Below are positions 6,384-46,454 of a DNA stretch of 64,000 bases, one piece after another (positions within the stretch are counted from its first letter, which is position 1; the number at the start of each line of letters is the position of its first letter). The notes beneath the pieces are model-generated. The model did no database searches, was not told the origin of the DNA, and was given only the letters and a program-made list of their open reading frames with translations. The stretch is taken from sequence record MW250785, one strand, 5' to 3'. Position numbers and translations under genes: made by a program. This stretch comes from Escherichia phage UPEC03.

Positions 6384-6857
6384 TTAGCCGTCATAACCAC
6401 CACCGCAACGAACATCACCTTCAATGAACAGTTCGCGGTTATCTCTCAGGAGATTGTATTTCTTTTCGAGTTCCGGCCCGAATGCGTCCGCGTCGTCATA
6501 CCAGTCATAGTTATAACTTCCGGTTTCCTCGTCGTATTCCGGTTCGTCGCCGCACTCATTGAAGTGAACGATTTTAACATCATCCAGATTCAGTTCTTTC
6601 AGCTTGTCCCAGATGCGGGTTATTTCGACGCTATTACATCCGAACGCTTCCAGTGTGATTGTACCGTCATCATGTACTTGAGGAACACCCCAGCGCGGAC
6701 GATGATGAATTTCGGTGATCATATCCATCAGCGATTCAACGTTTGACTCACCGTAAATCTTTGCAACTTCCTGTTCTTTACCAGGGCGGACAAGTCCTAT
6801 CCCGATAATGAAACTACTGCTTGAGCTATTGCTCACGAACCCAGAACGGATCTTCAT
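6384..6857 (-). CDS. Hypothetical protein, conserved-N-terminus family (MKIRSGFVSNSSSSSFI...), acidic/aromatic C-terminus
   Basis: N-terminal 17 aa identical to ORF 10292-10804 with only synonymous codon differences; C-terminus D/E/Y/W-rich. Confidence 0.55.
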   Translation of the reverse strand: MKIRSGFVSNSSSSSFIIGIGLVRPGKEQEVAKIYGESNVESLMDMITEIHHRPRWGVPQVHDDGTITLEAFGCNSVEITRIWDKLKELNLDDVKIVHFNECGDEPEYDEETGSYNYDWYDDADAFGPELEKKYNLLRDNRELFIEGDVRCGGGYDG

Positions 6858-9956: not shown

Positions 9957-10292
9957 TTAAATTTTCTCGTATTTGAATTTTTCTAAAATTTCGTTAACTT
10001 TATTGCTTACTGCTTCGACTGTACGATCACACCCGAACTTACGCGCCAGGAGTTCAACGTATTCATCCATCGTAGTGAGTTTGGATTCTGCAACGTCAAA
10101 CGCAAGCGCATACATTACTGGATTCAATACTCGAACGATTTGGAGAGTATACTCGTTCAGTTCAAAACGTTCAAGATATTTTCGCAGAGAAAATACATCA
10201 AACGGTGCGGGGCGATCCTGGCTAAAGGGGATCGACTCCCCTAATGCATAGCGAGGCATAACAACACAGACTTCGGTTTTTAACTTATCCAT
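9957..10292 (-). CDS. Hypothetical protein (111 aa)
   Basis: ORF immediately upstream of the vWA gene, adjacent stop/start. Confidence 0.45.
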   Translation of the reverse strand: MDKLKTEVCVVMPRYALGESIPFSQDRPAPFDVFSLRKYLERFELNEYTLQIVRVLNPVMYALAFDVAESKLTTMDEYVELLARKFGCDRTVEAVSNKVNEILEKFKYEKI

Positions 10293-10804
10293 CAGTGATG
10301 ACTCTTTGATGTGTGTTCAAGGTTACGGAAGATGTTTCCATGTTCCAGTTGAGTTCCGATCGGGCCGCATTCATCGGAGTACGTGAATTCATAGATAAAC
10401 ACGCCGTCCTGATTGCCATACTTCGTGTTGTACTCTTCATACAACCACATTTTGATCAGAGCGTCTTTCTCTTCTGTGTCCAGATCGTACCAGTCTCGCC
10501 CGTCATACGCAAGCGCAATTTGAGGGTTTGAACGGTAGCGGGTTTCTGCGCTTTCTTCGGTTTCCCAGTCATAGCGTTTATCGTCGTAGAACGATTCAAA
10601 GCTATTACCCAGATGACCGCCTAAGTCACGGTGAACATGATTGACCACTTCTTCCGCTGTTAACGGAGGATTGTAGTAACCGCAGTTCGGAACGCAATCA
10701 CCCATCATTTCGCGCAGGTTGTCGATATTAGTCGGATCTTTCGGGAACCGGACGATGAAACTACTTGATGAACTGTTGCTCACAAAACCAGAACGGATTT
10801 TCAT
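10292..10804 (-). CDS. Hypothetical protein, conserved-N-terminus family (MKIRSGFVSNSSSSSFI...)
   Basis: Paralog of 6384-6857 in the first 17 aa; divergent acidic/aromatic C-terminus. Confidence 0.55.
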   Translation of the reverse strand: MKIRSGFVSNSSSSSFIVRFPKDPTNIDNLREMMGDCVPNCGYYNPPLTAEEVVNHVHRDLGGHLGNSFESFYDDKRYDWETEESAETRYRSNPQIALAYDGRDWYDLDTEEKDALIKMWLYEEYNTKYGNQDGVFIYEFTYSDECGPIGTQLEHGNIFRNLEHTSKSHH

Positions 10805-39512: not shown

Positions 39513-39779
39513 TTATGCTTTTGATGCATCAATCGCTTCATTATCACCAGCGATTTCTACTGTTGCTGGCAGAAGTGCTTTGATCGCGCCGATCAGGGCA
39601 TCAGGGGATACACCCTGCGAACCGTCGATTTCCAGAAGACCGCAAATCTGGCCTACGAGTTGACGGTGATTTGCCAGTTCTTGTTCTTTACCCTGAATGA
39701 TTTCGTTCAGGTCGAATACACGGGCTTTCAGGATCAGGACATCGTTTTGAAGCTGTTGGGTTTGGTTTTGTTCAGTCAT
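39513..39779 (-). CDS. Tail fibre assembly chaperone gp57A-like
   Basis: 88-aa coiled-coil protein (...DVLILKARVFDL...IGAIKALL...); resemblance to T4 gp57A is from memory; adjacent to gene 1. Confidence 0.45.
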   Translation of the reverse strand: MTEQNQTQQLQNDVLILKARVFDLNEIIQGKEQELANHRQLVGQICGLLEIDGSQGVSPDALIGAIKALLPATVEIAGDNEAIDASKA

Positions 39780-39782
39780 TGT

Positions 39783-40451
39783 TTACACTCTTAAAAGATT
39801 GAATACATTAAGCACGTTGCGTTTCAAATCGTCTAACGTACCATTATTTAGGATTGTATAATCACTCAAGCCAGGTGTCAAACCTTTCTCCGTTGAATGA
39901 TTATCTTCAATACCAGTTTCACGTTCAAGGAACACAAAGCGAGTCCCGAACTTGCTCAGGTATTTATATTCGTGCGGTTGACGCACATCGGTAATGATAA
40001 AGTGATCCGCGTAGGATTTCAACATTTTTTGAAGCGCAATTGAAGTCCAGATAGACGGATCTACTTTACAAACAATATCAGTCCCGAACACCTGCATCAA
40101 ACGGCGAATCGTCCAGGGCTGGGTGTTTTCTTCGCAAATTTTATGAGCGATAACATCTGCGTTACTCATGAAGAACCCGCGAGAACTTAATTTTTTGATA
40201 CCGCTAGAAAACAGCGTGTATGCATCGTTATTGGACATCACCAGCGGGGCTTCACGATCACCCTCATAGAATGGGTTCTTCGCTGCCAGCGCTCGCAATT
40301 GCGTGTTATCGTGATGTTCCATAGAACGTTTCAGGATAGCTTTGATTTCGTCGGCTAACGCGATAACTTCAACATTGCGGAAGTTATGCACAACCATTTG
40401 AGCAACGGTATCTTTACCCGTTCGCTTTTTACCACAAATACCATAAATCAT
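39783..40451 (-). CDS. 1: Deoxynucleoside monophosphate kinase
   Basis: P-loop GICGKKRTGKDT; IRRLMQVFGTD, TDVRQPHE and HSTEKGL parallel T4 gp1 motifs. Confidence 0.85.
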   Translation of the reverse strand: MIYGICGKKRTGKDTVAQMVVHNFRNVEVIALADEIKAILKRSMEHHDNTQLRALAAKNPFYEGDREAPLVMSNNDAYTLFSSGIKKLSSRGFFMSNADVIAHKICEENTQPWTIRRLMQVFGTDIVCKVDPSIWTSIALQKMLKSYADHFIITDVRQPHEYKYLSKFGTRFVFLERETGIEDNHSTEKGLTPGLSDYTILNNGTLDDLKRNVLNVFNLLRV

Positions 40452-40999
40452 TTTTGCGTTTTCCGTGGAGTAGGCACGATCACCCGTCCGTCGATCTCAA
40501 TTTCCATGTGAGCGAAGTTGAACATCGTCATACAGGATACGGCTTCATCCGAATCATTGGTATACATAAGCTCAAGCTCTCCGAGGTTGGAGGGCCAAGC
40601 GCCATAGAAGCGAAATGTCGCTACAGTTTTTGACTGCGAGTTATCCAGGATATGCAAAGCCATTGCCTGTTGTGGTTCACTCCAACGCACGGAATCGAAG
40701 GTGTTAAAATCGACAGTACCGAGCATCCAAAGGTAAACCCCAAGATACGATCGCAGTTCTTCATCAACAGCAAAACGAATAGTCAGTGGATCGAACTCCA
40801 TTGCAGATCCTGGGATCTTCCCTCGAATCATTGGGTTCAGTGGGACATCCGTAATTGGAATGTTGATAGAAGGTAGTGTAACACCCTGAACTTGTAGTTT
40901 CAACCCTTTTACATAATCATTGTCAGGAATATCTAACATGAAGTTAGTAGGTGAAATCTGGTTCAGGATCATAGCAGTTGTATTCATGATGATCTCCAT
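40448..40999 (-). CDS. Tail completion / sheath stabiliser protein (gp3-like)
   Basis: 183 aa; 4-nt overlap with gene 1; T4 order 1-3-2-4. Confidence 0.45.
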   Translation of the reverse strand: MEIIMNTTAMILNQISPTNFMLDIPDNDYVKGLKLQVQGVTLPSINIPITDVPLNPMIRGKIPGSAMEFDPLTIRFAVDEELRSYLGVYLWMLGTVDFNTFDSVRWSEPQQAMALHILDNSQSKTVATFRFYGAWPSNLGELELMYTNDSDEAVSCMTMFNFAHMEIEIDGRVIVPTPRKTQK

Positions 41000-41025
41000 T
41001 TTATAGATATTTAGATCAAGACCGT

Positions 41026-41184
41026 GAGCGAAGCGAACACACGAACGAAGTGAGTGTTATGTACGATGTACTGTTTATAATATTTATATTTTATATATAG
41101 AGAAAACAGTACATTTCCGTATACTTTTTATACAATCGTTAACTATCCGTCTTCGCTTCGCTTGACGGAACTCGCTTCGCTCGC
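41026..41184. promoter_or_regulatory. Divergent intergenic region with nested inverted repeats
   Basis: GAGCGAAGCGAAC (41026-41038) vs TCGCTTCGC (41153-41161, 41172-41180); inner ATGTACTGTTT (41066-41076) vs AAACAGTACAT (41104-41114) around an AT-rich core holding minus-strand TATAAATA (41081-41088). Confidence 0.4.
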
Positions 41185-41210
41185 GATCTAATTTTTAGTT
41201 GATCTATTCA

Positions 41211-41217
41211 ATAAATA
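41211..41217 (+). promoter_or_regulatory. Candidate late promoter (ATAAATA) for gene 41256-42041
   Basis: caATAAATAgg about 39 nt upstream of the ATG; an overlapping sigma70-like TTGATC-N17-TATCAT is also present. Confidence 0.35.
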
Positions 41218-41255
41218 GGTATATCATACCTATACTTTCAAAAGAGATTGAAAAC

Positions 41256-42041
41256 ATGAAATCATTCAAAGAACTACTTTCTGAATCTGTTCAGAACAAA
41301 AAATTTGCTAAGACCGTTGATCTGGTTGACCGTGGTAACGCTGCAAAAGGTCAGATCGGTTTCCTGCATTTTGCACATGGTGCTGATTACGATGTGTATG
41401 CGCCGGACTCCCACGATCTCGCTTACTTCGGTAAAGGTGTTGTCCGCCTGAAAGGTAAAACCACTGGTAAGACTCAGGCAGCGTATATTGACTGGGCGAA
41501 AGGCACTGTTTCATTCTACAGCGGTGATCCTGCTGACGATCTGAAATTTGACAAGCCACTGAAATTCAAAGGCGCTTCCCTGTACAAAGAAGCCGAAGAA
41601 AACCTGGATCTGTACAATCAGTTGGCGGAAGATTTCGAGATTGATCTGCCTCTGGATGAAGCATTGGTGAAAGGAAAGGTGTACAAGCTCCCAAGTAACG
41701 ATATGTGCTTGCTGTATACCGGACGTACCAAAACCAAAGAAACAGGTGAATACGCCGTGTTTACGGTTGTAGATGCCTCTGGTAAGCCTCGTCTGGTATC
41801 GGGTAAACGCTTTACCCAGGAATACAAAGGTGATGTTCTGTCTAAACTGGTTCTAGCTGAATCAGAAGATTTGAACGAAGCCGCTAAAGATATTCGCGAA
41901 AAAGTTATTGCGGTGTTGGTGAAACGTGGGTTTAACGAAAAAGACGCAGAAAAGATGGTTGATAAAAACCTGAAAGATGCGATGAAGGTTCGACCTGGCG
42001 CAACCCCTGGCAAACTCGCGGAAATCGTGAGTATCCTGTAA
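41256..42041 (+). CDS. Hypothetical late protein (261 aa)
   Basis: ATG at 41256 (listed start at 41199 is TTG); visibly optimised codons (CGT, CTG, GGT, AAC); own promoter and strong terminator; inserted between gp3-like and gp2-like genes on the opposite strand. Confidence 0.6.
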   Translation: MKSFKELLSESVQNKKFAKTVDLVDRGNAAKGQIGFLHFAHGADYDVYAPDSHDLAYFGKGVVRLKGKTTGKTQAAYIDWAKGTVSFYSGDPADDLKFDKPLKFKGASLYKEAEENLDLYNQLAEDFEIDLPLDEALVKGKVYKLPSNDMCLLYTGRTKTKETGEYAVFTVVDASGKPRLVSGKRFTQEYKGDVLSKLVLAESEDLNEAAKDIREKVIAVLVKRGFNEKDAEKMVDKNLKDAMKVRPGATPGKLAEIVSIL

Positions 42042-42045
42042 AAAT

Positions 42046-42078
42046 AAAGCCCCTTCCTTTCGGTTGGGGCTTTTTTGT
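42046..42078. terminator. Intrinsic terminator between convergent genes
   Basis: AAAGCCCC-TTCCTTTCGGTT-GGGGCTTTTTTGTT. Confidence 0.6.
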
Positions 42079-42932
42079 TAATATCTGTTCCAAACTTTCT
42101 TCGCGCTGTATGGTTTTCCTTTGGACTGGAAAGCCTGTGTAGGCAACCAAACTGCTTTCGCCCAATCTTTTGGGGCGATCTCTGCAAGTGGTGAACGTAG
42201 ATGGGCTGGCAGATAGGCTTTGATCATTTGATCAGCCCCGCGCATTCCCTTCACGTTGTTCCAGTTGATTTTCAGTCTGGTTTTGTTAGAAAGTCGATCT
42301 GTTGATCCGTAGCCACGTTTCAGGAGTTCTTCTAAAAACTCTTGACGTGCTCGCGGTGGCGCATAGTGCAAGTTCAGCCCGTAAAGAACCAAGTTACCCG
42401 CTTTCGAACGTCCTGAACCCAGGAAAATGATCAGCGGGAACCGATCCCAGTATGGCAGGGTGTCTTTGTATTTCGCATCGTAGATGAACGTATACAAACG
42501 ACCCGTTGCTGGTTTCGCAACCCTGTGCGTCTTAATGCTGGTTTTGATGAAATCACCAAACCAATCGGTCGAATCTTTCTGACGTTTCGCAGCGGTTACA
42601 CCAACAGTCATTTTCTTCAAACTGTTGCGGAAATCGTTTACGATATCAACCGCGTGTTTTTTGCGATAATCATTACGTTTGCGTCGGGCTTCGGTTTCTG
42701 CTTTACGGCGTTCGATTTCATCATCAATCTGCTGCTTATAGCGGTGCATAGACTTTGTGAACGTTGCGTATGCAATCCCGTTTTCGTCCGCGAACTTTTT
42801 GGCTGTCATGCCTTTTAATTTTGCGCGTCGGAATTTGATACCAAGTTCAACCCATTCACCCAGCTTTCGCTTCGGTGGTGGTTTTGGCTTGTCTTCTTCT
42901 GCGATGATCTCGAACTCAAAAATAAAACTCAT
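42078..42932 (-). CDS. DNA end protector protein (gp2-like)
   Basis: 284-aa basic protein; strong SD GGAGGG; minus-strand AATAAATA late-promoter-like motif about 20 nt upstream (42951-42957); synteny 4-2-3-1. Confidence 0.45.
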   Translation of the reverse strand: MSFIFEFEIIAEEDKPKPPPKRKLGEWVELGIKFRRAKLKGMTAKKFADENGIAYATFTKSMHRYKQQIDDEIERRKAETEARRKRNDYRKKHAVDIVNDFRNSLKKMTVGVTAAKRQKDSTDWFGDFIKTSIKTHRVAKPATGRLYTFIYDAKYKDTLPYWDRFPLIIFLGSGRSKAGNLVLYGLNLHYAPPRARQEFLEELLKRGYGSTDRLSNKTRLKINWNNVKGMRGADQMIKAYLPAHLRSPLAEIAPKDWAKAVWLPTQAFQSKGKPYSAKKVWNRY

Positions 42933-42953
42933 AATTCCCTCCGTTTAGGGTAT

Positions 42954-43421
42954 TTATTGCCCTTTCCATCCGAACACACGTTTCAATGTGTCCTCTGTGA
43001 TGATCTTGAACTCCCAGCCCTTTTGTTTTGCTGCTGCATTCGCGGCTTTCCATTTGTCAATGTTTACTGCATACGTATACAGTGCATCAACGAATTTCTT
43101 TTTGTTGTGAACGTTGTTGTTCGCTGGCTTAGGTGGGGGCAACGTTTCTTTCATCGGTTTGACTTCCCAAAGGTAGGTCACTCCATTATCCATTTCGACA
43201 TAGAAATCCATGAAGTAACGCCGTCGCTTTCCGTCTGCGTTGCTGAAATAAGGGATCACAACGCATTCTGAATTCCACCTCTTTACGTGGGGATTTCGGT
43301 CTAACCAATTCATTATATATTTTTCCCATGAAGAACGATATGTTATTTTTCTGGGATCTCCTTTATACTTTTCTATCTGTTGTGGCATAAAGGAACCTTT
43401 GTATGTCTGTCTTCCAGTCAT
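42954..43421 (-). CDS. Head completion protein (gp4-like)
   Basis: 155 aa (T4 gp4 about 150 aa); position between gp2-like gene and the 53/5 block. Confidence 0.45.
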   Translation of the reverse strand: MTGRQTYKGSFMPQQIEKYKGDPRKITYRSSWEKYIMNWLDRNPHVKRWNSECVVIPYFSNADGKRRRYFMDFYVEMDNGVTYLWEVKPMKETLPPPKPANNNVHNKKKFVDALYTYAVNIDKWKAANAAAKQKGWEFKIITEDTLKRVFGWKGQ

Positions 43422-44089
43422 TATTTCACCTTACAATTATCAAAATGCCACCTATACATTGCTCTGGGGTTTCCTTCTTTTCCGCAATGTGGACATATTA
43501 CAGGTTTCGTGTTTTTAGCTGAGTCGCGCATCTTTTGTTTTGCTTCTTCGCTAATAATTCTTCCTGTTAACGAAGCGCTAAGGTTATCTCTATGCTCTTT
43601 AGAACGGTTTGACGCAACTCTACTCATTTTTTGTTTGAATTCATCACTTCTCTTTATTCCGGTCATCCCTTCGGAAATACTTTTCTTGTGTGCTTCTGAT
43701 AGCGGTTTCCCTTTTATTGATTCTCGTCTTTTTCGTTTCCAATCATCGCTACGTGGTGGGTGTTTAGTCCCTATAGAATTGATTCGATTTTGTTCGGCTA
43801 CTTTCTCTCTGATCCATCCGTAAGTTCGAGAAGTCATTCTTCCAGAATGAAATCTTGATGCCATTGACATCATCTTACACGCGTATATAAGTTTTCCGTT
43901 TGTTGGGTACATTTTGACGAGTAGTTGATGGGCGAGATAGTGTTCTTCGGCAGTGAGACAAACGATATTTTCGGGTTCGTCCATTCCTCCCATACACCGA
44001 GGGATGATGTGATGGTTTTCTGAATACCCGCTTATAGTTCTTGATTGTGCTCTTTTGATAAGAAGTTCATAGTGTTTGCGGTAATTCAT
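43421..44089 (-). CDS. HNH homing endonuclease-like protein with basic repeats and C-terminal zinc ribbon
   Basis: HHIIPRCMGGMDEPENIVCLTAEEHYLAHQ; C-terminal CPHCG...C; AT-rich; sits between gp4-like and gp53. Confidence 0.75.
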   Translation of the reverse strand: MNYRKHYELLIKRAQSRTISGYSENHHIIPRCMGGMDEPENIVCLTAEEHYLAHQLLVKMYPTNGKLIYACKMMSMASRFHSGRMTSRTYGWIREKVAEQNRINSIGTKHPPRSDDWKRKRRESIKGKPLSEAHKKSISEGMTGIKRSDEFKQKMSRVASNRSKEHRDNLSASLTGRIISEEAKQKMRDSAKNTKPVICPHCGKEGNPRAMYRWHFDNCKVK

Positions 44090-44136: not shown

Positions 44137-44691
44137 GTGTTGTTCTCATTCTTTCCACCAGTTGATTACAAAGGCACACCAACTACTGATATCTACCGCG
44201 ATTATCGTTTTTACTTTAACCGCGTGATCAGGAATTATAAGCCGCGTACATATCAACTGACAGGTTCATTAAGACCCGAACAATTAGCGGAAACGCTATA
44301 CGGAAACCAGCAATACTACTGGGTTATCCTGATGCTTAACGATAATTACGATCCGTTTTACGGATGGATTACCGATCAGGAAACGGCTTATCAATGCGCT
44401 ATCCAGCGTTATTCAAAAGCAGGTGGTGAACAGGTTCTTTATCATATGGATGGTAAGGGCAACCGTTATTACAATTTGGTTGAAGACCCTACGAATCCCG
44501 GTCATTGGTATGACAAAGGCGATAAGAACATGCGTTATTTGCAGTACCAGGGAACATTAGTCCCTGTAGATATTTATGAAGATGCGGTGCTTCAAAATGA
44601 AGCAAAACGAACCATCAAGATTATTAACCCCTCTGATATTCAATCATTTGTAAGTGATTATATCAAGGAAATGGAAAAGGCAAACCTATGA
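44137..44691 (+). CDS. 53: Baseplate wedge subunit gp53-like
   Basis: 184 aa, GTG start with AGGAGA SD; overlaps gp5 start (ATGA). Confidence 0.6.
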   Translation: MLFSFFPPVDYKGTPTTDIYRDYRFYFNRVIRNYKPRTYQLTGSLRPEQLAETLYGNQQYYWVILMLNDNYDPFYGWITDQETAYQCAIQRYSKAGGEQVLYHMDGKGNRYYNLVEDPTNPGHWYDKGDKNMRYLQYQGTLVPVDIYEDAVLQNEAKRTIKIINPSDIQSFVSDYIKEMEKANL

Positions 44692-46454
44692 AATACGGTG
44701 GAAATAAATACTCCCCTTTCTTTGAGGGGGTGGTCGAAGAAGTCGATGATCCTCGTCTATTGGGGCGTGTTCAGGTGCGTGTATTCGGTGAGCATCCGGC
44801 ACAGAAACAAAAATCTGAAACTATCGGTATTCCGGTTGAGGAATTGCCGTGGATGATGCCTATTCAGGATATTCGCAGCGCCGCTATTTCTGGTGTTGGT
44901 TTTTCCCCGACTGGTATCACGCGCGGTAGTTTCGTTATCGGTTACTGGCGCGATAAATGGCACCAGGACGGCGTTATACTGGGAACCTTTGCGGGTGAGT
45001 ACCGAGAGAAGCCGGACACCCAGAAAGGCTTCTGTGACCCGTTTGGTGAGTATCCTCGTTATGTAGGTAACGATGTCAACGTACTGGCTCGCGGTGGCGC
45101 AGAGGGGCGCGGTTCTTCAAGCGTGATTATTCGTGATGCTAACAGTTCGTTAGCTGTCAATCCAGATGATCGCCCACTTGACGAGATCCCAGAAGATAAC
45201 CGACCTGATACTGGTGGGTTTACGATAGAAAAAATGATCCGTGGTGATGAAGGTATTAGATTGACGTGGTATTATGATGTTAAAGGTTATACCATCGGGA
45301 TCGGGCACTTTTTCTTAACCGCACCACAAGGAACAGACCCAGCAGTTGTTAACGCTGCGTTATCTAAACAAATTGGCAGAACGGTTACTGGTGTTCCTGG
45401 ATCAATCACTGCTGATGAAGCGAGTGTTTTATTTCAGCAGGATTTAGCTAAAGTTCATAACGATATTCAGAATAATAGCAAAGTTCGCGAAGTGTATGTG
45501 ACGTTAAACCGTCCTCGTCAAATGGCTATTGAAAATATGTGCTTCCAGATGGGTGTTGGTGGTGTCGCCAAATTTACGAATGCTCTGGCTGCTATGAAGC
45601 GTCAGGACTGGCAAACCGCTTACAACGAACTGCGAAACTCTACATGGGCTAACCAGACGCCAGGACGTTCTTCACGCGTATCTAAAATCGTTCTGACGGG
45701 CAACCTTGAATCATACGGTGTTCAGGTTCCAGATCCAGAAGGGCGTTCATTGAGTGCTGCTTATAATGCGGTGGTTCTGCAAGCAAGCAACCCAGAAGAT
45801 CCTTTTGTTCCTGGTGATACCCGCGTAATGTTCGAGGAACCTAAATCGGCATACGCTGCTGCATATCCATACAACATGGTATTCGAATCCCGTTCTGGAC
45901 ACATTCAGGAATTCGACGACACCCCAGGCTTTGAGCGTTACAACCGCGTTCACCCAGCAGGATCATACGAAGAAATTCGTCCTGATGGAACCCGTGTTGT
46001 TAAAATCGTTGGTGATGATTATCAAATCGTCATGCAAGGCCGTAAATTAAACGTCAAGGGTAATTTGCAGGTTGTTATCGAGGGTGATGCGTTCATTTAC
46101 AATATGGGTAACGTTCAACAGACCGTTGATGGTAACGTGACCGAGTTCGTGCGCGGTAACGTGAATCAAACCGTTGAAGGTGAATATTTGGGGCTGATTA
46201 AAGGCAACGCAGAATTAACCGTTGAAAAAGATGCAACCGTAAACGTGAATCAGAATTTAATGGCTAACGTTAAACAGAATGCAACCGTTGCCGTAACTGA
46301 GGATGCAACAATTACCGCAAAAAATGCTCTGATTGATATTGAGCAAGATTTGGATATTGGCGCACGTAATATCAACATACGAGCATCGAATAATACTTTC
46401 ATTGATTCCGGCGCACTGACTAAGATCACTGGCGGAACAGTCCAGGTAGGTTAA
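44688..46454 (+). CDS. 5: Baseplate hub subunit and tail lysozyme gp5
   Basis: Central T4-lysozyme-like domain (DEGIRLTWYYDVKGYTIGIGH, MCFQMGVGGVAKFTNAL, WANQTPGRSSRV); C-terminal beta-helix repeats (VxGNxxxxV). Confidence 0.9.
   Translation: MKYGGNKYSPFFEGVVEEVDDPRLLGRVQVRVFGEHPAQKQKSETIGIPVEELPWMMPIQDIRSAAISGVGFSPTGITRGSFVIGYWRDKWHQDGVILGTFAGEYREKPDTQKGFCDPFGEYPRYVGNDVNVLARGGAEGRGSSSVIIRDANSSLAVNPDDRPLDEIPEDNRPDTGGFTIEKMIRGDEGIRLTWYYDVKGYTIGIGHFFLTAPQGTDPAVVNAALSKQIGRTVTGVPGSITADEASVLFQQDLAKVHNDIQNNSKVREVYVTLNRPRQMAIENMCFQMGVGGVAKFTNALAAMKRQDWQTAYNELRNSTWANQTPGRSSRVSKIVLTGNLESYGVQVPDPEGRSLSAAYNAVVLQASNPEDPFVPGDTRVMFEEPKSAYAAAYPYNMVFESRSGHIQEFDDTPGFERYNRVHPAGSYEEIRPDGTRVVKIVGDDYQIVMQGRKLNVKGNLQVVIEGDAFIYNMGNVQQTVDGNVTEFVRGNVNQTVEGEYLGLIKGNAELTVEKDATVNVNQNLMANVKQNATVAVTEDATITAKNALIDIEQDLDIGARNINIRASNNTFIDSGALTKITGGTVQVG

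Follow-up and report, generated by a model that had tools for sequence, protein, structure and literature searches.

We analyzed a 64,000-nucleotide stretch of Escherichia phage UPEC03 (sequence record MW250785; the window, numbered from its first letter) around an open reading frame (ORF) at 41256-42041 on the plus strand, which lies between the minus-strand genes gp3 and gp2. The window comes from an RB43-like T4-type myovirus of the genus Pseudotevenvirus, and the 2.5-kb region around the ORF shares 99.0-99.5% identity with the Cronobacter and Enterobacter phages Cronuts, PF-CE2, Taquito and leB, the last of which serves here for genome-wide comparison. The ORF starts with ATG, encodes 261 residues followed by a stop codon, and is nested in a longer TTG-started frame from 41199; its homologues begin at the same MKSFKE start. 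A match to phrog_7322 (E = 1.6e-171) and homologues in 174 phage records bear out an earlier note, made from the letters alone, which had called this frame as a gene. The features of the coding region are as follows, a vertical bar within a motif marking a predicted cut.

41256..42041, plus strand: coding sequence of a candidate internal head protein, phrog_7322 (ORF call, PHROG match, homologues and alignment)
41256..41285, plus strand: residues 1-10, MKSFKELLSE, a candidate capsid targeting sequence ending in the prohead-protease motif L-S-E|S (sequence comparison and family conservation)
41298..41621, plus strand: conserved β-rich N-domain, residues ~15-122, the family core (alignment; pLDDT ~75-84)
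41622..41660, plus strand: linker 1, residues 123-135, with LAE|D and LDE|A (pLDDT <50, predicted disordered; [LI]xE here in 21/21 family members)
41661..41861, plus strand: middle β domain, residues ~136-202, absent from some family members
41862..41882, plus strand: linker 2, residues 203-209, flanked by LAE|S and LNE|A (pLDDT <50, predicted disordered)
41883..42038, plus strand: swappable C-terminal three-helix module, residues 210-261, phrog_9411 (match 5.8e-18)

The putative N-terminal tag

Searches with the whole protein gave no significant match in Pfam or NCBIfam and no match by sequence in the PDB; Foldseek found none in the PDB at E <= 0.001, and the fold searches gave no informative match. 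The earlier note had left the product without an identity, which holds for these whole-protein searches, but the N-terminus resembles a T4-type targeting tag and points to an internal head protein. In T4, internal proteins (IPs) enter the prohead by means of a capsid targeting sequence (CTS) of about 10 residues, MKTYQEFIAE, which is removed by a protease, and some 1000 IP molecules stay in the head (PMC8442874). IPs are highly diverse, and the CTS is their sole common feature (PMC3012670); those of the T-even phages have been summarised (PMC3012670; PMC4122927). In T4 itself, ipII and ipIII begin MKTYQEFIAEA and ipI begins MKTFKEFTSTTTPVSTITEA (MKTFKEFTS...), while the annotated IPs of phages CIP9, CF1 and PEi20 begin MKTY.EF[ILM].E (MKTYQEFIAES, MKTYQEFITEA and, in PEi20, MKTYDEFLTES). 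The ORF product begins MKSFKELLSES, and other starts in its family include MKTFKELITES (member P0003), MKNFKEFLNEV and MKSFKEMLSES. We took the CTS to be a sequence of about 10 residues of the form MKT[YF]xEF[IL]xE, to which MKSFKELLSE corresponds, and the prohead-protease site to be [LI]-x-E followed by a small residue, which is found at L8-S9-E10|S11 and predicts cleavage there. In Slopekvirus the CTS pattern is exact if the start codon is taken to be a TTG that lies three codons after the annotated ATG, which yields MKKFKEFLTE|G.

The tag is also conserved. F4, K5 and E10 are the same in all 17 sequences of a family alignment; the conservation score over residues 1-10 is 0.79, versus 0.55 over residues 11-33. 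The motif [LI]xE ends at residue 9-13 in 19/21 family members, including relatives at roughly 40-50% identity. When the 579 ORFs of leB were scored for similarity to the T4 CTS, the N-terminus of the ORF tied for second place (z = 4.2); the window holds no other CTS-like N-terminus, and one further example was found in leB. Moreover, leB has annotated genes for the core, protease and scaffold of the prohead (gp67, gp68, gp21 and gp22) at 130297-132454, and T4-type IP genes are kept in this part of the map, where ipI follows 57B in the string 4-2-3-1-57A-57B. Because the N-terminus matches the CTS, the tag is conserved and leB encodes the prohead machinery, we suggest, with a probability of roughly 65%, that the ORF of this RB43-like T4-type phage encodes an internal head protein equipped with a CTS. 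The family as a whole would be best explained as previously unrecognised internal head proteins of this kind. The mature part of the product has no similarity to T4 IPI, IPII or IPIII, and this lack of resemblance in the body of the protein, whether to T4 IPs or to any Pfam, PDB or NCBIfam family, fits proteins that share the CTS alone.

The top scorer among the 579 leB ORFs is gp232, whose N-terminus reads MKSFKDFTSLDE|A. This gene (L005:41792-42625, minus strand) encodes a 277-residue zeta-toxin-like P-loop protein (Pfam PF06414, 4e-8) with an MKSFK... start, has a codon adaptation index (CAI) of 0.528, and likewise sits on the opposite strand with its own AATAAATA promoter. From its sequence it is a candidate for an encapsidated, injected kinase.

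Domain modules, transcription signals and codon usage

An AlphaFold2 model built on the family alignment (mean pLDDT 69) predicts the tag as a low-confidence N-terminal helix ahead of the folded domains. The N-domain has a structural match in R9TJK7, a 118-residue uncharacterised protein of Vibrio phage nt-1 (target-normalised TM-score 0.68). Across the family the tag and N-domain are constant and the middle domain is optional, while any of three unrelated modules may follow at the C-terminus, in some cases in tandem. RB43 (ORF200w, L009:2501-3109) and some relatives encode a 202-204-residue version that lacks the C-terminal module, and other members carry one of two unrelated alternative modules, or two in tandem, reaching 340-344 residues. 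The motifs of linker 2 are conserved in every member with the middle domain, whichever C-terminal module comes next. Seven [LI]xE motifs occur in the ORF product against 2.3 expected, a three-fold over-representation (P = 0.004); they mark the end of the tag and both linkers, and are conserved at every module junction across the family.

This placement would allow the prohead protease to cleave the protein into separate modules. The product could then be a capsid-targeted 'polyprotein', in which one tag delivers two or three folded domains and the protease cuts the [LI]xE|[AS] linkers to release separate small proteins for injection, an arrangement that we offer tentatively and regard as rather doubtful. 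If true, C-terminal module swapping would diversify an injected arsenal of which one module is also free-standing in the early-gene block. In the giant phages phiKZ and SPN3US, proteins inside the head are made with propeptides, and a prohead protease resembling T4 gp21 cleaves them at short motifs that end in Glu (PMC5694885; PMC7411985). The junction motifs of the ORF are predicted to permit similar multi-site processing, although those phages belong to another group and their motifs have another context.

A free-standing paralogue of the C-terminal module exists in leB: gp016 (L003:10411-10572, minus strand) is a 53-residue phrog_9411 protein, 60% identical to the C-terminal 48 residues of the ORF product, and adjoins denV within a minus-strand block of DNA-replication genes. 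The same module thus seems to exist in two forms, one encoded by a small gene of its own and the other built into a candidate packaged protein. Mimicry of the RuvB-binding domain III of RuvA by this module was raised by three weak signals and rejected, as an 8-sequence profile of the module missed RuvA and Pfam RuvA_C was unmatched. A metal-binding or catalytic site formed by the invariant residues H38, H41, D51, H53 and D54 was likewise rejected, since distant family members lack these histidines.

The gene is flanked by its own transcription signals and by a repeated intergenic element:

41011..41191, no strand assigned: structured repeated intergenic element with GC-rich inverted arms around an AT-rich palindrome, carrying a minus-strand TATAAATA (41081-41088) for gp3 (inverted repeats)
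41199..41227, plus strand: sigma-70-like promoter (TTGATC, 17-nt spacer, TATCAT) framing the late motif (score 9/12)
41210..41217, plus strand: late-promoter-like motif AATAAATA, 39 nt upstream of the ATG (T4 consensus TATAAATA)
41243..41248, plus strand: weak Shine-Dalgarno-like AGAGAT, ~8-9 nt before the ATG (read from the sequence; conserved in Lw1 and RB43)
42046..42079, no strand assigned: bidirectional intrinsic terminator (A-run, hairpin, T-run) between the convergent ORF and gp2 (fold statistics and conservation)

The earlier note had ascribed to the ORF a late-promoter-like motif and a strong intrinsic terminator of its own, and both are borne out. Among the known late genes inspected in leB, AATAAATA lies upstream of gp23 (the major head protein), gp2, the ORF homologue and gp232, TATAAATA upstream of gp20, gp21, gp22, gp34 and gp3, CATAAATA upstream of gp15, gp19, inh and the distal long-tail-fibre subunit gene (which we labelled gp37), and CTAAATA upstream of many baseplate genes. 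Since gp23, gp2 and gp232 of leB carry it, the motif of the ORF reads as a normal late-promoter variant of the phage group, the same as that before the major capsid gene. JC221 has a perfect TATAAATA at the homologous position. The window has 15 NATAAATA sites, and 7 of them are at most 100 nt ahead of a start codon on the same strand; by chance, we estimate, about one would be. The sigma-70-like promoter is not significant by its score alone (2 sites found in a consensus scan versus 2.6 expected), but the layout of -35 element, late motif and -10 element is conserved in Lw1, RB43, JC221 and KP27, and the promoter is positionally homologous to near-consensus sigma-70 promoters before gp55 and uvsY in leB. 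The two elements may therefore form an overlapping early/late promoter.

The terminator hairpin (42046-42073) and its T-run fold with a minimum free energy of -17.1 kcal/mol (z = -4.7), which 0/200 shuffles equalled; a simple consensus scan overlooked it because of an internal T-T bulge in the stem. It is conserved in Lw1, RB43 and KP27, and in JC221 the inner stem is inverted with pairing retained. The terminator is bidirectional, given the A-run 5' of the hairpin, the convergent genes and the annotation of a terminator on both strands by the authors of the KP27 record. Taken with the promoter motif, these signals support the ORF as a separate opposite-strand transcription unit. A 94% identical copy of the hairpin (window 42046-42081) is found at leB 136657-136692, at another convergent junction near UvsW-like helicase genes.

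The upstream element is a nested inverted repeat of ~180 bp, with arms GAGCGAAGCGA / TCGCTTCGCTC and the AT-rich palindrome ATGTACTGTTT...AAACAGTACAT, and as single-stranded DNA it folds with z = -5.5. Rfam returned nothing at threshold for the flanking non-coding DNA, this repeat included. Two further copies at 86-89% identity lie upstream of gp55 and uvsY in leB (L003:31918-32072 and L005:35494-35604), each of the three copies per genome precedes a sigma-70-type promoter, and the arms are conserved in JC221. The repeat could serve as a promoter cassette, bind a protein or act as an origin of replication; T4 has the origin ori(uvsY), which the copy upstream of uvsY recalls. PeSL regulatory cassettes mediate modular shuffling in T4-type phages (PMC2839356; PMC4122927), and like them the element is a repeated, structured intergenic sequence with a sigma-70-like promoter, directly upstream of the ORF, while the terminator hairpin is repeated too. 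Its structured part, however, is the long nested repeat rather than a short GC stem-loop terminator. By this analogy, PeSL-like repeats could account for the arrival of the transcription unit between genes 3 and 2.

Codon usage was scored with the published E. coli Sharp-Li weights, entered by hand. The CAI of the ORF is 0.478 against a window mean of 0.365 (standard deviation 0.088), which places it 8th of 88 ORFs in the window, far above its low-copy neighbours gp2 (0.345), gp3 (0.261) and gp4 (0.232); the nearby gp1 scores 0.338. With the synonymous codons of the protein redrawn at window-wide frequencies, the CAI was 0.372 ± 0.028 (z = 3.8, P = 0.0006), so the codon statistics differ from the average. 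The earlier note had described a marked bias to CTG, CGT, GGT and AAC. Of these, CTG (16/27 versus 41%, p = 0.04) and GGT (13/20 versus 45%, p = 0.06) are raised, while neither CGT (4/8) nor AAC (7/8) is individually significant, and the gene ranks only in the top 10-15%. Among leB ORFs of at least 100 residues, the homologue ranks 23rd of 168, with the following values for it and for other genes of that phage:

gp23, 0.697
gp18, 0.533
gp22, 0.526
gp19, 0.516
Hoc-like, 0.494
ORF homologue, 0.469
gp24, 0.464
Wac, 0.460

The word 'marked' overstates the bias: usage resembles that of gp24, the Hoc-like gene and Wac but falls below that of gp23, gp18, gp19 and gp22. The bias is real yet moderate, no outlier and comparable to that of virion proteins of moderate to high abundance, and it fits the earlier reading of a late gene with fairly high expression. 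Both this codon usage and the late-promoter variant shared with gp23 would be in keeping with an internal head protein.

Interpretation of the product

As an internal head protein, the product would be transcribed late from its own AATAAATA promoter, with a possible early contribution from the overlapping sigma-70-like promoter. The 29-kDa precursor would be brought into the assembling prohead core by its 10-residue tag, which a gp21-type prohead protease would cut off after Glu10 (L-S-E|S). Rich in lysine, the mature protein of ~27.7 kDa would then stay in the head with the DNA, be injected into the next host and act there before phage gene expression, perhaps binding a host target or counteracting host defence, and subject to diversifying pressure in the manner of T4 IPI*. 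Such a role is suggested by the analogy with IPI* together with the modular polymorphism of the family.

The likeness to the CTS-bearing IPs of T4 extends from the tag, MK[TS][YF]xE[FL][IL]xE plus a small residue, to the putative late promoter, the high codon adaptation, the non-essential and lineage-specific distribution, the absence of anything conserved beyond the tag, and the map position near the 4-2-3-1-57A-57B-ipI block. Unlike those proteins, the ORF product has a mature part with no sequence or fold similarity to them and three domains in ~251 residues rather than 76-183 residues; it is also near neutral rather than strongly basic, its gene is on the opposite strand, in the gap between genes 3 and 2, and its packaging and cleavage are predictions. 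Hypervariable IP loci of T-even phages were reportedly described by Repoila et al. in 1994 and by Comeau and Krisch in 2005. There, as here, one targeting tag is joined to differing cargo, with C-terminal modules exchanged on a constant tag and N-domain in the present family; the difference is that modules are swapped within one gene at a fixed locus, and not whole small genes replaced.

Several observations weigh against assigning the product to the interior of the head. T4 IPs are described as highly basic (PMC8442874), a property that is typical of them though not strictly defining, and the mature product is near neutral, with an isoelectric point of 7.65 (40 K+R versus 39 D+E; 32 K, 8 R, 23 D and 16 E); only its C-terminal module is basic, at 9.5. 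At 251 residues it exceeds T4 IPI-III in size, and an IP has no need of the early expression at which the conserved sigma-70-like promoter hints. Gene 21 lies outside the window, so that the protease is supplied by comparison with relatives, and neither virion proteomics nor N-terminal sequencing was found in the literature on Pseudotevenvirus, Slopekvirus, KP15/KP27 and RB43 or under the protein accessions. Finally, leB NadV (MKTFNELNS), a 57B-like protein (MKSFLEV) and a small UvsW.1-like ORF share MKSF or MKTF starts; packaging of these proteins is improbable, and by themselves the first four residues therefore carry little weight.

Some of these same points would fit other roles. The charge, unlike that of T4 IPs, and the surplus of [LI]xE motifs would suit an accessory protein of the prohead core or scaffold, delivered by the tag, then fragmented at several [LI]xE sites and largely expelled or left as peptides, as with gp22, gp67 and gp68. 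Four of the seven motif Glu residues lie in the 13% of the sequence that forms low-confidence linkers, and leB gp67 also begins MKEFIEAI. Yet the three folded domains of the model (pLDDT 70-85) would be unexpected in a disposable scaffold, as would the swapping of C-terminal modules from phage to phage, and a gene missing in most T4-type phages cannot be a required core component, so that we consider such a role improbable. The shared MKSF and MKTF starts of several unrelated proteins of the same genome, the lack of proteomic evidence found for a virion location, and a sigma-70-like promoter that suggests a role beyond late times would instead agree with a late non-virion protein, e.g. an assembly chaperone or a factor in superinfection exclusion or late host takeover, whose likeness to the CTS is coincidental or reflects selection on translation initiation (an AAA second codon and an A/U-rich start). 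Selection on initiation, however, leaves unexplained the invariant Glu10 in an [LI]xE|small motif, as well as the conservation of residues 4-10 while residues 11-33 vary freely; nor does it account for an identical tag on a second late gene with a high CAI. This explanation, too, appears unlikely to us.

An internal head protein would be of practical interest, as phages of the RB43, KP15 and KP27 types are widely isolated with a view to therapy against Klebsiella, Enterobacter, Cronobacter and Citrobacter. If injected with the DNA, the protein would be one of the earliest phage factors that host defences encounter, as T4 IPI* is for GmrSD, and its swappable modules would be candidate determinants of host range or counter-defence. 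Moreover, the 10-residue tag would offer a handle for loading foreign proteins into the heads of these phages, as in T4.

Age of the gene and its neighbours

Gene content near the ORF was assigned from ORFs together with PHROG and Pfam matches:

39513-39779, minus strand: gp57A
39783-40451, minus strand: gp1, dNMP kinase
40448-40999, minus strand: gp3
41256-42041, plus strand: the 261-residue ORF
42078-42932, minus strand: gp2, DNA end protector
42954-43421, minus strand: gp4
43421-44089, minus strand: HNH homing endonuclease
44137-44691, plus strand: gp53
44688-46454, plus strand: gp5

In T4, Kanagawavirus (CIP9, PEi20) and Moonvirus (CF1), genes 2 and 3 are adjacent on one strand in the order 4-2-3-1-57A-57B with nothing between them. 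Relative to these phages the gene is an insertion, and it breaks the 4-2-3-1 string just as the earlier note had said. The suggestion in that note that the gene was acquired as a moron fares differently. A moron would be recently acquired by horizontal transfer, expressed autonomously, codon-optimised in a former host context and unrelated to virion function, and the separate promoter and terminator, the opposite strand and the site left empty in T4 all speak for one, as do the repeated cassettes at both ends of the gene, which could have mediated insertion. Against it, the gene occupies the same gp3/gp2 gap in Lw1, RB43, leB, KP27 (Slopekvirus, 80% amino acid identity) and Yersinia phage JC221 (69%), so that an identical locus is filled in three diverged lineages. 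Its GC content is typical (0.45 versus 0.443 for the window), and its codon bias equals that of the phage's own abundant late genes. Of the 174 phage records with homologues, 163 match over 80% or more of its length. The family is tiny: exhaustive searches yielded only 16 clusters at 90% identity and, by profile among 1.84 billion representative proteins, 11 representatives at 50% identity; among the 11 representative clusters there is no annotated bacterial family, and all named or source-traceable members are from phages. These data largely refute a moron, which we consider highly improbable, and identify the gene as an old, phage-specific feature of the clade with no recent foreign acquisition.

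The gp3/gp2 gap is not a general hot spot for IP genes in T4-type phages, an idea that we rejected because the gap is empty in Tevenvirinae and, in Krischvirus, holds an unrelated 84-residue ORF without a CTS. In all 174 records the homologue is annotated as hypothetical or mislabelled. In MW629017.1 (PF-CE2), PP337149.1 (HK6) and LC589952.1 (vB_EkoM5VN) it is called a 'tail completion protein'. A gp3-type tail completion protein was rejected as an identity, given that no Pfam or PHROG tail family was matched and the true gp3 is the neighbour at 40448-40999, from which the label is probably an annotation slip. The present analysis thus corrects this annotation along with the moron assignment.

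Among the neighbouring genes, gp3 has its own perfect TATAAATA at 41081-41088 on the minus strand, within the repeated intergenic element, and gp2 has AATAAATA at 42951-42958 on the minus strand, inside the end of gp4. Because gp3 and gp2 have late motifs of their own, genes 4, 2 and 3 can, as these motifs suggest, each be transcribed separately and not solely as one operon. The 222-residue HNH/NUMOD-type homing endonuclease gene at 43421-44089 (minus strand) is inserted between gp4 and gp53, at a site where it is absent from 62/62 related phage records (megablast, DNA level). The gp4 DNA flanking it is ~91.5% identical to that of relatives versus ~99% for the adjacent region, which looks like a footprint of homing or co-conversion. 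Elsewhere in the window, two minus-strand ORFs of 157 and 170 residues (6384-6857 and 10292-10804) have in common the unusual N-terminus MKIRSGFVSNSSSSSFI. They lie ~3.4 kb apart on either side of a 748-residue gene with a high CAI, and are apparently paralogues.

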